Shown in pieces: positions 25,825 to 53,541 of a DNA stretch of 64,000 nt. Within the stretch, counting starts at the first letter, position 1. Each line of letters opens with the position of its first letter. Source of the DNA: an uncultured Planctomycetales bacterium (lineage in GTDB: Bacteria > Omnitrophota > Gorgyraeia > Gygaellales > Profunditerraquicolaceae); assembly GCA_964579435.1 (NCBI GenBank), contig CAZOGI010000001.1, positions 157,907 to 221,906 of the forward strand, in the 5' to 3' direction. Under the pieces are notes generated by a model that was given only the letters and a program-made list of their open reading frames with translations, was not told the DNA's origin and did not search any database. A program made the translations under genes and the position numbers.

Positions 25825-26406
25825 TTACGCCCAGATGACGCGGTTCACCCTGACGTCTCTGGCGGTGGTAGGGACAGAAGGAAGGATTTGAAAATCGTAA
25901 GCCAGGCCCACGGTCGGTGTATCCTGCGGCAGTCGGGACAAAAAAGAGTCGTAACATCCCCTGCCGCGCCCCAACCGGTTGCCGCGACGATCAAAGGCAA
26001 TGCCCGGCACGATCACTAAGTCTATATCGCGCATGCGTAAGAAGCGCTTGGCGCGGGGCTCGGGTATTCCGTAGAGCCCTTTATGCAGCCGCGCCGTCTC
26101 ATGAAAGACACACGGCCAGACCAGGTGCGGCGTGCGCGCAACCGGGACCGCAACCCGTTTTCCCCGCAGAAACGCTTCCCGTATCATGCTCCTTGTGTCC
26201 ACTTCGCCACCGAAAGAGAGGTAAAACATCACCGTTTTTGCTTTTCTAAACGCTGTTGTCCTGAACAGCTTACCTTTTATAGTACAACTCTTTTTGGTTC
26301 GCTCTTCCTCCTTCTGAGTTTTTAACAGCGCTATAATTCTACTACGCAGAGCCTGTTTTGTCAATGCTCTCCCCGGACAGGCGGCCGGAAACAATGTCTT
26401 TTTCAT
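25825..26406 (-). CDS. ygfA: 5-formyltetrahydrofolate cyclo-ligase
   Basis: DLVIVPGIAFDRRGNRLGRGRGCYDSFL is the family signature. I place the start at ATG 26406 (MKKTLF). Confidence 0.85.
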   Translation of the reverse strand: MKKTLFPAACPGRALTKQALRSRIIALLKTQKEEERTKKSCTIKGKLFRTTAFRKAKTVMFYLSFGGEVDTRSMIREAFLRGKRVAVPVARTPHLVWPCVFHETARLHKGLYGIPEPRAKRFLRMRDIDLVIVPGIAFDRRGNRLGRGRGCYDSFLSRLPQDTPTVGLAYDFQILPSVPTTARDVRVNRVIWA

Positions 26407-26422
26407 GGAGAAAAGCCGCCTC

Positions 26423-27109
26423 TCAAGCGCTTGGGCGGGGCGCCGCTGATGCTGCGGCGCCGGCAAGATTCTTCCGGTGCGGTCGCCGCGCAACCGCATG
26501 GTCTTTCGGCGCACGAATCGCCCGGAAACGATCGAGCTTCTGTTGCCGCTGGGCCTCTTGATAAATGAGCACCCAGGCACAGTCCTGTTCTTTATCCACC
26601 TCGCACTTGCCTTTATTCATCCCCCCGCAAGGCCCGTTCAGGAGCCCCTTGGGGCAAAGGGTGACGGGACAGATCCCGCCGGTCTGCGCGAGAACGCAGG
26701 CTCCGCACAGGGAGCATTTTTCGAGGAAATTCCCCGCGGCATCGACGGTTGCCCCGAAAACGGTATCGCACCCGGGCAGTGTCGGGGCGCTGGTGCGCGC
26801 ATTGTCTTTGACCGACTGTACCCCGAGCCCGCAGGCCAGCACCAGAAGCGCCTCGGCCTGGCGCACCTGCCCCGCGGCGCGCGCCAACTCCGCTTTCACC
26901 TGGGCTGCCACGCAGGGCGCCTTGGGGATGCGCCAGCCGACCACCGTCTTTCCCGCTTTTTCAAGCTGTTCCTTCAGGAGGCGCACCGCTGCCTCGTCGC
27001 CGGTTTTACACGTGGTGGCGCACTCGCCGCACCCGACGATGAATACCCGGTCGAGACCGCGCAGCGATTCTTCAATTGCGCCAAAGGGTTGAGCGGTGGT
27101 TATTATCAT
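26423..27109 (-). CDS. Methylenetetrahydrofolate reductase C-terminal-domain-like (MetV-like) Cys-rich protein
   Basis: The Cys-rich pattern VGCGECATTC...CSLCGACVL...GGICPVTLCPKGLLNGPCGG matches the MTHFR_C family. No metF catalytic gene is adjacent. Confidence 0.7.
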   Translation of the reverse strand: MIITTAQPFGAIEESLRGLDRVFIVGCGECATTCKTGDEAAVRLLKEQLEKAGKTVVGWRIPKAPCVAAQVKAELARAAGQVRQAEALLVLACGLGVQSVKDNARTSAPTLPGCDTVFGATVDAAGNFLEKCSLCGACVLAQTGGICPVTLCPKGLLNGPCGGMNKGKCEVDKEQDCAWVLIYQEAQRQQKLDRFRAIRAPKDHAVARRPHRKNLAGAAASAAPRPSA

Positions 27110-27174
27110 GGGGGGGTCTTATCCGTAGGGGCATTGTAACACTTTTACCGGGGGGCGACAAGCAAAAACCGGGC

Positions 27175-27353
27175 AAAAAAAATCCCCGCCTGTGCCGTTG
27201 TAGCCTGGTGGGCTGTGAACCTTCCGGTTACACGTGGGTGCCCGCTCCGCAGGCACGCATGCGCCGCGGAAGAGAGGCTCCCTTTTTTTTGGTGTTGGCT
27301 CACCAATCACCAGGCTCTTGAACGAACACTGCAGGGACTCTTTTCTGCTGCAC
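27175..27353 (-). ncRNA. ssrS: Candidate 6S RNA (about 180 nt)
   Basis: It lies between a consensus sigma70 promoter and a U8 tract. Its 5' segment (27336-27308) pairs with its 3' segment (27210-27184) as a long closing stem. Both strands of the roughly 25/25-nt central bubble can form small hairpins. There is an imperfect 15-bp apical stem (27282-27236). It sits upstream of the ygfA homologue. Confidence 0.5.
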
Positions 27354-27358
27354 CTTTG

Positions 27359-27387
27359 AGTATACCACGGGGGCCCGCCTCTGTCAA
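27359..27387 (-). promoter_or_regulatory. Sigma70-type promoter driving the 6S RNA candidate
   Basis: The minus strand reads TTGACA (27387-27382), a 17-nt spacer, then TATACT (27364-27359). Confidence 0.55.
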
Positions 27388-27421
27388 ACCCGCGCTCTCC
27401 CGAACACAAAGGCGCGCCGCA

Positions 27422-28945
27422 TCAGAGAACGATCCGATACCAGTCAATCTGAACGCCCGAGAGCTCCTGACGACGCAACAGCTCAAGATGCCCCTGGAAC
27501 GACTCGGGCAGGACAAACGGCTTGTTCAACGGCCGCACCAGCCAGAGGGAGCGGATGCCGCGCAATTGAAGCGGGTCGTGGATCACCTCGGTCATGGCCA
27601 GACACAACCAGCCCGAATCCAACTCCCGGCCCAGCTGCTCCATGCTGATCACCTGGCGGAAGGGACGATCCAGATAATGGAAGATGTTCAGGGTCTCGGA
27701 GACATCGGTCACCGCCACCATATCCGCCGGCCCCAGGCGCTCCCGCAGATAGTCGGCGATCACACGGGCATCGGCCTCGACGGTCAAAGAAGGCCGCCCG
27801 TAGAGCCCGACAAAACGCACGGCGTTGGCGACCAGAATGACTGCGGCGAACGCGACCAGCCAGCGCCGCGCCGGCGGCGGGTAGACACTGTGCGCCCAGG
27901 CGATCAGAAGATAAAAAAAAGCGAAGGCTGTTAAAAAATATGACGGATAGTGCAGGTAGGTGCGTCGCAAGAACGCACCCGCGACCGCAACCAGCACCGG
28001 AATGATCCCAGCCAGAACCATAAGCTGCCGCGGGCGCTGTGCGAGGGCCTGCAGGAAACGCAGCGCCCCGGAACCGGACCAGGCGATTCCCCGTAGCGCG
28101 GTACGCCTCAAAAAGAGCGCTCCTACAAAAACACCGATAAACCAAAGGCGCGTGGACCAATGGTTCGCATACAGAAGGAGCAGCTCCCAGAGGGCCGCGG
28201 CAGGACGTACCTCCTGCTGAAAGGCGCGGAAGACGTAGGGGTAAAAACGGTATTTCAGCGCCACCGCCGTCGTGATCCCCATGAGCCCGAAAAGCGAGAC
28301 GGCGATGAGCAGGCGCCGGAAGGGCCGGGAAACGGCGCCGGGGACCAAACAAACCCCCAGCTGTAGCAGCAGCAGGAAAACCCCGAAATAGTGCAGCCAA
28401 ACCGATAGCAGCAGGAAAAACGCGCAGAGATACCGGTAAACCCGCCGGGGATGAGAGAGCGAAAGGAAGAAATAATACATCGTCCCCAGGGACACAACGG
28501 TCCAGATGCTGTAGACGCGCGCCTCGCTCGATAAATAGATGAACCGTTCCGAGCAGGCGATCATCAGGCAGGTCAGGACCCCGACCGCAGGACTAAAAAG
28601 CCGGCTGCCGAGCCGGTAACTTACCCACATGATCCCCACGCCGCTCAGGAGAGAGAAGAACCGCGGCAGGAATTGCCAGAAGAGCGCCCCGCCCAGGAGC
28701 TTTAGGAGAATGAAGTACAGCGGGGGCATCATGTCGCAGGAAGAGAAGAACCGCTCGAACATCTCGAACCAGGGGAGGCGGATGAACGAGAAGGTAAGGG
28801 CCTCGTCGAAATTAAAAGGCCGCAGCAGCATAACGACGCAGCGCAGCGCAGTGCCGAAAACGATTATGGCGAGGGCAAGACGGGAGCAACGTGCAGCTAT
28901 CGTATCGGGGGGGCGAGGGGAAAAAGAAGCATCCCGGTTGTTCAT
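27422..28945 (-). CDS. GT-C fold membrane glycosyltransferase (ArnT/PMT-like)
   Basis: About 11 predicted TM helices with a soluble C-terminal domain. The early-loop motif is FNFDEALTF (DE-containing). 507 aa. Confidence 0.7.
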   Translation of the reverse strand: MNNRDASFSPRPPDTIAARCSRLALAIIVFGTALRCVVMLLRPFNFDEALTFSFIRLPWFEMFERFFSSCDMMPPLYFILLKLLGGALFWQFLPRFFSLLSGVGIMWVSYRLGSRLFSPAVGVLTCLMIACSERFIYLSSEARVYSIWTVVSLGTMYYFFLSLSHPRRVYRYLCAFFLLLSVWLHYFGVFLLLLQLGVCLVPGAVSRPFRRLLIAVSLFGLMGITTAVALKYRFYPYVFRAFQQEVRPAAALWELLLLYANHWSTRLWFIGVFVGALFLRRTALRGIAWSGSGALRFLQALAQRPRQLMVLAGIIPVLVAVAGAFLRRTYLHYPSYFLTAFAFFYLLIAWAHSVYPPPARRWLVAFAAVILVANAVRFVGLYGRPSLTVEADARVIADYLRERLGPADMVAVTDVSETLNIFHYLDRPFRQVISMEQLGRELDSGWLCLAMTEVIHDPLQLRGIRSLWLVRPLNKPFVLPESFQGHLELLRRQELSGVQIDWYRIVL

Positions 28946-38481: not shown

Positions 38482-38558
38482 TGGTGGGCCCATGAGGACT
38501 CGAACCTCAGACCTTCACGATGTCAACGTGACGCTCTAACCAACTGAGCTATGAGCCC
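38482..38558 (-). tRNA. tRNA-Val (GAC), CCA encoded
   Basis: Hand fold: GGGCTCA/TGGGCCC acceptor, anticodon loop TTGACAT, T-loop TTCGAGT, 3' ACCA. Confidence 0.9.
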
Positions 38559-38583
38559 AACAACCGCTTGATTCCGTCTCAAA

Positions 38584-38666
38584 TGGGCAAGGAGGGATTC
38601 GAACCCTCACAGCCGTGAGGCCAACAGATTTTAAGTCTGTCGTGTATGCCATTCCACCACTTGCCC
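38584..38666 (-). tRNA. tRNA-Leu (TAA), class II with a long variable arm, no encoded CCA
   Basis: GGGCAAG/CTTGCCC acceptor, anticodon stem ACAGA/TCTGT, loop CTTAAAA, 15-nt variable arm, T-arm GAGGG-TTCGAAT-CCCTC. Confidence 0.85.
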
Positions 38667-38729
38667 GCAGCTTTTCTTCGCACCCGTTAGCGCGCGCGCC
38701 CTCCCTGCCGGTGCGCACGGGAGTGGGAA

Positions 38730-38804
38730 TGGAGGCGGCAAGCGGAATCGAACCGCTGGATAACTGTTTTGCAGACAGTTGCCTTGCCACTTGGCTATGC
38801 CGCC
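38730..38804 (-). tRNA. tRNA-Cys (GCA), CCA encoded
   Basis: GGCGGCA/TGCCGCC acceptor, anticodon stem ACTGT/ACAGT, loop CTGCAAA, T-loop TTCGATT. Confidence 0.9.
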
Positions 38805-53466: not shown

Positions 53467-53541
53467 GTCCCCATCGTCTAGCCTGGTCTAGGACAAGAGC
53501 TTTTCAAGCTCTCGACCGGGGTTCAAATCCCCGTGGGGACA
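53467..53541 (+). tRNA. tRNA-Glu (TTC), no encoded CCA
   Basis: GTCCCCA/TGGGGAC acceptor, anticodon stem AGAGC/GCTCT, loop TTTTCAA, T-arm CGGGG-TTCAAAT-CCCCG. Confidence 0.9.

Follow-up and report, generated by a model that had tools for sequence, protein, structure and literature searches.

The intergenic element and its assignment to 6S RNA

The DNA analysed here is a stretch of 64,000 nucleotides (nt), below called the window, from contig CAZOGI010000001.1 of an uncultured bacterium of the phylum Omnitrophota. The locus of interest lies on the minus strand, where the gene order is pheT, a gene for a 507-amino-acid (aa) membrane protein, an RNA element, a MetV-like gene, and the genes for 5-formyltetrahydrofolate (5-formyl-THF) cyclo-ligase, RNase Y and YmdB. 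The open reading frame (ORF) of the membrane protein (27422..28945, minus) ends at 27422 and the following MetF-C-terminal-like ORF (26423..27109, minus) starts at 27109. This leaves the gap of 312 nt in which an earlier note, made from the sequence alone, had proposed a 6S RNA gene with its own promoter and terminator upstream of a homologue of ygfA. The minus-strand element at 27175..27353 is, with high confidence, the 6S/SsrS RNA gene (ssrS) of a Candidatus Omnitrophota bacterium. 6S RNA is a small regulator of bacterial RNA polymerase that imitates an open promoter.

Scanning with Rfam covariance models had been suggested as a check of this proposal. All Rfam families were scanned over the whole window, and a second, more permissive scan extended to E<=0.1. 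The model RF00013 (6S/SsrS) matches 27179..27340 on the minus strand with 61.4 bits, above its gathering score of 46.4 (E=1e-9), and the match covers the model in full length (positions 1-187). No competing Rfam family was found at the locus to E<=0.1, and elsewhere in the window only four tRNAs were matched. The clade-specific covariance model for Omnitrophota, described below, matches 27173..27345 and scores the window copy with 147 bits. With neither RF00013 nor the Omnitrophota model was a second 6S paralogue detected in the 64-kb window. The boxes of the family occur in the window RNA in the order of the model, namely CUGC.GUGUUCGU, UGAGCC, GGGAGCC, GGCACCCAC, GGUUCA, AACGGCAC and GCGGGGA. 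The annotated ssrS of E. coli K-12 reaches 139.8 bits with RF00013 and matches the same boxes. The element is a typical 6S RNA, detectable by any Rfam-based annotation of the window. Its novelty is confined to the host, an uncultivated phylum, and leaves the knowledge of 6S RNA unchanged; our literature search returned no mention of 6S RNA together with Omnitrophota or Omnitrophica. The assignment gives this lineage, which is uncultivated and poorly annotated, a correct gene call.

For the minus-strand RNA of 171 nt the minimum free energy (MFE) is -88.4 kcal/mol, compared with -56.2 +/- 3.9 for dinucleotide shuffles (z=-8.36, 0/200 as good), whereas folding of the plus strand gives z=-3.62. 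The fold is closed by a stem of the 5′ segments UCCCUGC, GUGU and CGUU (27321..27337, minus) with the 3′ segments AACG, GCAC and GCGGGGA (27183..27199, minus), which is seen in the MFE fold, in the RNAalifold consensus and in the column count. Then follows the internal helix P2, in which GCCUGGUG (27308..27315, minus), a part of the predicted template of product RNA (pRNA), is paired with CACCAGGC (27203..27210, minus). Both the pairing of the 5′ and 3′ segments and this perfect 8-bp core, 27315..27308 with 27210..27203, had been read from the sequence before, and both are present in the MFE fold. The conserved box (G)UGAGCC at 27297..27303 (minus) forms the 5′ strand of the helix P3 in the RNAalifold consensus; P3 corresponds to the "downstream duplex" and the box aligns with CUGAGCC of E. 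coli. The 5′ strand of the central bubble, AACACCAAAAAAAA, occupies 27283..27296 (minus). The 3′ strand of the bubble together with GGUUCAC occupies 27215..27235 (minus), and a local hairpin GUGUAACC-GGAA-GGUUCAC is possible there at 27233..27215. The bubble is capped by an apical stem-loop (GGG.GCCU ... GGGC.CCC; 27236..27282, minus), which is shorter than that of E. coli; here the Rfam alignment has 8 nt at a place where the model has 34.

The description of the middle part in the earlier note requires some adjustment. The imperfect hairpin exists in the MFE fold, but with 18 pairs and not 15. The bubble exists as well, but of the approximately 25 nt thought to be unpaired on each side, six (UGAGCC and GGUUCA) pair with each other in the family consensus and 14 remain on either side. 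The small hairpins expected on the two sides, one of them with a GGAA loop, are both found in the MFE fold.

Homologous copies and covariation in Omnitrophota

For comparison, 80 Omnitrophota genome loci around MetV-like homologues were used, here denoted by L numbers, and the first 40 of them were scanned with Rfam at the gathering threshold. The 80 loci include neither the genome of the window itself nor a nearly identical sister sequence. RF00013 reported 6S RNA in 5 of these 40 loci. From the five copies and the window a clade covariance model (R1) was built. This model detects 22 copies counting the window, with 112-164 bits and all on the strand of the neighbouring genes, while the reverse strands score 18-38 bits. 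Taken together with the folding of the two strands of the window, this supports the minus strand as the strand of the RNA, for which the earlier note had argued. According to the clade model, the first 40 loci hold 11 copies, six of which were missed in the Rfam gathering scan (L010, L036, L021, L004, L012 and L005). Three of the six reach 54-63 bits once the Rfam filters are relaxed, so they were lost by filtering and not by divergence; the other three are absent even at E<=0.01. Since the gathering scan reported only 5 of 11 copies and at least three of the missed ones lie above threshold with relaxed filters, 6S genes are probably under-annotated in Omnitrophota, and a clade-specific model recovers them.

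The window and 20 homologues, 21 forward copies in all, were aligned with MAFFT without structural input, and this alignment was used for RNAalifold and for the column counts. The alignment produced by the covariance search was set aside, as it mixed forward and reverse-strand matches. The RNAalifold consensus consists of a closing stem, an internal loop, a short UGAACC/GGUUCA helix, a bubble of ~14 and 15 nt and an apical stem, and this is the canonical 6S layout. When the internal helix is added to the consensus structure, 92.9% of the cells are paired; in controls with the 3′ partners slid along by 1-3 columns, the share is 37-48%. Compensatory changes occur at 21 pairs (8-15 when slid), and the covariation score reaches 0.255, whereas the slid controls stay at or below 0.092; none of 500 shuffles reaches the observed values. 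A 6S RNA is a rod of about 150-200 nt in which a large bubble separates the closing from the apical stem. This architecture, on which the earlier note had based its proposal, is supported by both the RF00013 match and covariation in 21 copies.

The support is unevenly distributed over the structure. The apical stem is the most variable part and shows double changes in all ten of its upper pairs. In the core of the internal helix (columns 35-39/141-145), four of the five pairs show compensatory changes, for example G37-C143 in the window, which is mostly A-U elsewhere. Helices 1-2 show 96-99% pairing. The pairs of the closing stem are mostly invariant or changed on one side only (C-G to U-G), and the near-invariance of this stem says little either way. 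The G-C pairs flanking the bubble are highly conserved, with C49-G131 in 20/21 copies, C50-G130 in 19/21, and G65-C114 as well as G66-C113 in 21/21. Conserved G-C pairs on both sides of the central bubble are a known feature of 6S RNA (PMC4064990). An alignment-free comparison of the duplex energy of the internal helix with mononucleotide shuffles gave a mean z=-1.2, with negative values in 21/22 copies and -3.7 in the window. This is moderate per-sequence support, and the column-wise count is the more informative of the two. A natural "mini" 6S RNA of 144 nt is found at L053:1254-1397, where the apical stem is cut to a short hairpin (GGGGGCUUGAAAGAGCACCC) and the bubble and the closing stem are intact.

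Promoter, predicted transcript ends and proposed function

The promoter of the window copy, TTGACA-17-TATACT, spans 27387..27359 on the minus strand and agrees with the sigma70 consensus at 11/12 positions, as near-perfect as the earlier note had judged it. The promoter scan places the -35 hexamer at 27382..27387 and the extended -10 element, TGG-TATACT, at 27359..27367 (TG at 27367-27366, hexamer at 27364..27359). In a region of 800 nt, 2 promoter-like sites were found against 0.2 expected in shuffles. The promoter is conserved. All 22 copies are preceded by TTG(A/T)nn, a spacer of 16-17 nt and a TGn-TATACT-like element, an arrangement found in 0.04% of random 70-nt windows of the same loci. 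At the -35 position, 21 of the 22 copies carry TTGAnn at the same spacing and one carries TTGTTT. Between the end of the -10 hexamer and UCCCUGC lie 21 nt in the window and 17-33 nt in the other copies, so transcription in the window should start near 27351-27354 (minus), ~7 nt past the hexamer. By this geometry the primary transcript would be ~179 nt long, with a short A-rich leader that should pair with the U-tract. About 180 nt past the promoter, GGCGGGGA at 27190..27183 is followed by eight U residues (U8, 27175..27182, minus) right after the closing stem, which by sequence reading are the presumed 3′ end and intrinsic stop. At least 7 U within 9 nt after GCGGGGA are present in 20/22 copies.

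The GGUUCA box has two pairing partners that exclude each other. In the open-bubble form, GGUUCA(C/G) pairs with the 5′ box UGA(A/G)CC and is 97.6% paired in 21 copies. In the alternative form it pairs locally with (G/C)UG.AACC to give the 3′-bubble hairpin, with 86% paired against 29-43% when slid; the closing pair of this hairpin (117/136) is CG in 8 copies, GC in 3, UG in 2 and UA in 1. The two forms differ by 0-5 kcal/mol in all copies. When the 14 template nucleotides are blocked as a mimic of bound pRNA, the predicted fold contains the 3′ hairpin. Thus, as release of the E. coli type requires, the downstream duplex can give up its 3′ strand to the 3′ bubble strand.

Several points weigh against the assignment to 6S RNA or against parts of it. 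The UGAGCC/GGUUCA duplex shows one-sided changes alone and zero double compensatory changes, so that the case for its pairing is made by conservation and by the Rfam model. For the window copy, the minimum is the two-hairpin form with -80.5, as against -77.1 for the open-bubble form; because the former is lowest in energy, the free RNA may present no open bubble without polymerase. The terminator proposed in the earlier note is upheld in part: GGCGGGGA, U8 and the conserved U-tract are there, but they follow a long-range closing stem in place of a compact hairpin. A generic terminator scan found no compact G+C-rich hairpin before U8 and returned 1 weak site, against 1.1 expected. Since this is the level of chance, we do not apply the label "consensus terminator" to the 3′ end. 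Termination by a closing helix with a range of 150 nt together with the U-tract is assumed here, as a presumption. Likewise, the transcript start, the 3′ end and the abundance are predictions from the sequence, and polymerase binding, pRNA synthesis and the release mechanism are carried over from characterized 6S RNAs by homology.

The element could in principle be a different rod-shaped small RNA that resembles 6S, such as an Ms1-like binder of core polymerase or a base-pairing RNA, so that the Rfam match would reflect its shape and a few motifs. The 61.4 bits exceed the gathering threshold by just 15 bits, the apical stem is far shorter than that of the model, and the Rfam gathering scan, which caught 5 of the 11 copies, left three that are unfound even at E<=0.01. 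A look-alike would, however, hardly match the model in full length with the 6S boxes in order, the boxes that E. coli ssrS also matches. Moreover, three of the copies missed at gathering score 54-63 bits with relaxed filters, and E. coli-type 6S RNA agrees with the present copies in bubble size, in the G-C pairs on either side of the bubble and in the release hairpin. We consider such a look-alike very unlikely.

Even less credible is a cis-acting leader, a riboswitch or attenuator controlling the metV-like and cyclo-ligase genes through the U8 terminator. The varying identity of the gene downstream largely refutes it: rarA and not a folate gene comes after the RNA in 20 of the 22 homologous loci. 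In addition, the folate block is found without the RNA in 46 related loci, and in the window a separate conserved promoter past U8 serves the folate operon. A leader would account for the position of the element, immediately followed on its strand by two folate-related genes, for its U-tract end and for its two alternative folds, yet no THF or other riboswitch family is matched in the window at E<=0.1, compared with E=1e-9 for 6S. As for a protein-coding gene with incidental RNA structure, a 96-aa ORF (27119..27409, minus) does span the whole element, and the frame from UCCCUGC is free of stops in the window copy. That frame contains 1-7 stops in each of the other 21 copies, and on neither strand does any frame remain open in all copies. 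The substitutions are compensatory in helices and do not concentrate at third codon positions, and the ORF starts upstream of the -35 hexamer of the conserved promoter. With no frame conserved across the 22 copies the coding explanation is ruled out, and we attach next to no probability to it.

For the 6S RNA we propose the following mode of action, based on homology with the E. coli and B. subtilis 6S RNAs. The strong sigma70-type extended -10 promoter would give rise to the ~179-nt transcript, the 3′ end of which would be set at U8 past the closing stem. The transcript would fold into a rod of the closing stem, the 8-bp internal helix, the UGAGCC/GGUUCA duplex, the 14 + 14-nt bubble and the apical stem-loop, and the bubble would mimic an open promoter. 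Occupying the active site of the housekeeping RNA polymerase holoenzyme, the RNA would dampen sigma70-type transcription when nucleotides are scarce. Once nucleoside triphosphates are available again, the polymerase would copy the 5′ bubble strand, probably from C27294. The known pRNA start sites are U44 in E. coli and C40 in 6S-1 (PMC8876501, PMC3299989). E. coli U44 corresponds to position 45 of the RF00013 model and to C27294 in the 5′ bubble strand of the window, inside the invariant box GA(A/G)CCAAC. By this alignment, the pRNA is predicted to start at C27294 with the sequence 5′-GUUGGCUCACCAAUC...; it matches the plus-strand sequence from 27294 upward, 5′-GUUGGCUCACCAAUCACCAGG. In E. coli-type 6S RNA, pRNA synthesis unwinds the downstream duplex, and the 3′-bubble hairpin then forms and drives release (PMC8876501). 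In the window RNA, the growing pRNA would similarly open the downstream duplex and then the internal helix. The freed GGUUCAC would form the 3′-bubble hairpin with GUGUAACC, and the RNA:pRNA hybrid would be released.

Among the known systems, the 6S RNA of E. coli resembles the window RNA in the order of the boxes, the overall rod and the G-C-flanked bubble. The downstream duplex consists of CUGAGCC and GGUUCAAG in E. coli, to which GUGAGCC and GGUUCAC correspond in the window, and the release hairpin has 9 bp in E. coli (PMC8876501) compared with 7 bp and one bulge in the window. The window RNA, with about 165-179 nt, is shorter than the 184 nt of E. coli because its apical stem is ~26 nt shorter. 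The template base aligned with the pRNA start is C in the window and U in E. coli. The design of the E. coli-type 6S RNA, with a downstream duplex, a release hairpin and a G-C-flanked bubble, thus extends to a candidate phylum of the PVC group.

The 6S-1 RNA of B. subtilis (bsrA) has a small 3′-bubble hairpin in the free RNA and weak pairing in the 5′ bubble (PMC8876501), and a similar structure is predicted for the window. Its pRNA also starts on a C (C40), as predicted for C27294, and RNase Y belongs to the RNA-processing set of both B. subtilis and the window organism. For 6S-1, however, a "central bubble collapse helix" is described and not an extended 3′-bubble hairpin that recruits the downstream duplex (PMC8876501). 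This description sets it apart from the Omnitrophota RNA, in which GGUUCA can switch partners in the E. coli manner. Ms1 is a structured RNA of Actinobacteria that binds core RNA polymerase, in a group described as largely devoid of 6S RNA (PMC9130861). It is similar in general shape and associated with polymerase (PMC9130861), whereas the window RNA matches the 6S model and its boxes.

Gene neighbourhood

In the related loci, the constant neighbours of the 6S RNA are pheT and rarA. Where visible, pheT directly precedes the RNA (21/21 loci), and the gene after the RNA encodes a rarA-type AAA ATPase (NCBIfam PRK13341/RarA models) in 20/22 loci. The rarA gene is followed by the MetV-like gene, often a NifU gene, the cyclo-ligase gene and rny. 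All six rarA loci in which the RNA is missing are truncated within rarA or immediately before it, and one of them keeps the last 28 nt of the RNA. The window and L040 carry no rarA at this position, and the 507-aa membrane protein gene after pheT is peculiar to the window. The homologue of ygfA lies two genes downstream of the RNA on the same strand, as the earlier note had stated: the cyclo-ligase gene (PF01812) is the second gene 3′ of the RNA. It is found downstream on the same strand in 21 of the 22 RNA-bearing loci, separated by 1 to 3 genes in the relatives and by one in the window. In 46 loci with a full 3-kb upstream flank, however, the MetV-like/NifU/cyclo-ligase/rny block is present without pheT, the RNA or rarA ahead of it.

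The block also has a promoter of its own. In the window, the promoter of the metV-like/cyclo-ligase operon, TTGTCG-17-TGTTACAAT, was located by the promoter scan at 27133..27161 (minus), and the same layout is found in L040. An extended -10 promoter (TTGnnn-17-TGnTAAAAT) lies at most 90 nt from the MetV-like start in 65/80 loci, against a background of 1.4%. In many relatives the -10 element of this promoter ends 6-7 nt before the ATG, compared with 24 nt in the window, an indication that the MetV-like operon of these relatives is transcribed into leaderless mRNA.

In Proteobacteria, ssrS and ygfA form a co-transcribed unit (PMC7641849, PMC3299989), and the E. coli 6S RNA is processed from an ssrS-ygfA precursor, the transcription of which is stopped within ygfA in a Rho-dependent manner (PMC3299989). 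E. coli shares with the window the 5-formyl-THF cyclo-ligase gene downstream on the same strand, but the biogenesis differs: here the RNA has a conserved U-tract end, one gene intervenes and the cyclo-ligase operon has its own promoter. The upstream neighbour also differs, being zapA in E. coli, pheT in the relatives and the membrane-protein gene in the window. Because the metV-like/ygfA/rny block has its own conserved promoter, co-transcription of the RNA with the cyclo-ligase gene as in E. coli appears unlikely. The intervening gene, the U-tract, the separate conserved promoter and the 46 blocks without RNA distinguish the locus from a proteobacterial ssrS-ygfA operon. The linkage to ygfA, from which the earlier note had argued, therefore stands as a loose, lineage-restricted synteny and not as the proteobacterial unit. 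The genes that constantly flank the RNA in this phylum are pheT on the upstream and rarA on the downstream side, and "upstream of ygfA" is an unreliable guide to the gene.

The rarA start codon lies 1-10 nt past the 6S U-tract in many relatives (L004:1594-1606, L022, L021, L068, L048, L010, L062 and L012). Such a short distance can accommodate neither a promoter nor a Shine-Dalgarno spacer, so that rarA expression in these relatives presumably depends on read-through from 6S. It is conceivable, if rather unlikely, that the 6S closing stem and the U-tract act as a long-range leaky terminator, which would set the 3′ end without processing and gate the next gene; the window copy would then be a derived state that has lost rarA and lies beside an independently promoted folate operon. 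If true, 6S synthesis would be coupled to rarA, which encodes a replication-restart ATPase, in a conserved pheT-6S-rarA unit.

In other relatives, the spacer between 6S and rarA contains a conserved hairpin with covarying stems, GGCCAyAACUUAyGG...CrUAAGUUrU..GGCC (L038:1505-1620, L013:1516-1634, L074, L076 with two copies, L005, L070 and L053). A second long hairpin in this spacer has ends (AAUCCCGC...GCGGGAU) like those of the 6S closing stem. The spacer hairpins match no Rfam family in the scanned loci L038, L013 and L005. In one related locus, a c-di-GMP-I riboswitch (RF01051, 66.3 bits) is located upstream of the MetV-like block (L025:1027-1161).

The first gene downstream of the RNA in the window (26423..27109, minus) encodes a MetF C-terminal-domain protein (DUF5981/"MetV-like"; Pfam PF12225, E=1e-32). 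The second gene (25825..26406, minus) encodes the 5-formyl-THF cyclo-ligase, a ygfA/fau homologue (Pfam PF01812, E=3e-44), which the NCBIfam model TIGR02727 scores with 158 bits at a cutoff of 84.9. The longest ORF of the cyclo-ligase (25825-26580, minus) overlaps the MetV-like gene by 158 nt, and its domain begins at residue 75. The ATG at 26406, 17 nt past the MetV-like stop, gives a protein of 193 aa, compared with 180-212 aa in the relatives, and is probably the true start.

The closest relatives of the MetV-like protein share at most 66% identity with it, and those of RNase Y ~82%; the named matches are almost all from Candidatus Omnitrophota or Omnitrophica. The 507-aa ORF between pheT and the 6S gene encodes a multi-pass membrane protein with about 6-7 hydrophobic segments. 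It had been labelled a GT-C glycosyltransferase, a label left unconfirmed by zero matches to Pfam or NCBIfam, and none of the 80 related loci has a counterpart of the gene at this position. The G+C content of the window is 59.5%. Elsewhere in the window, a cluster of three tRNA genes (Val-GAC, Leu-TAA and Cys-GCA) is located at 38482-38804 on the minus strand, and a separate tRNA-Glu-TTC gene at 53467-53541 on the plus strand.

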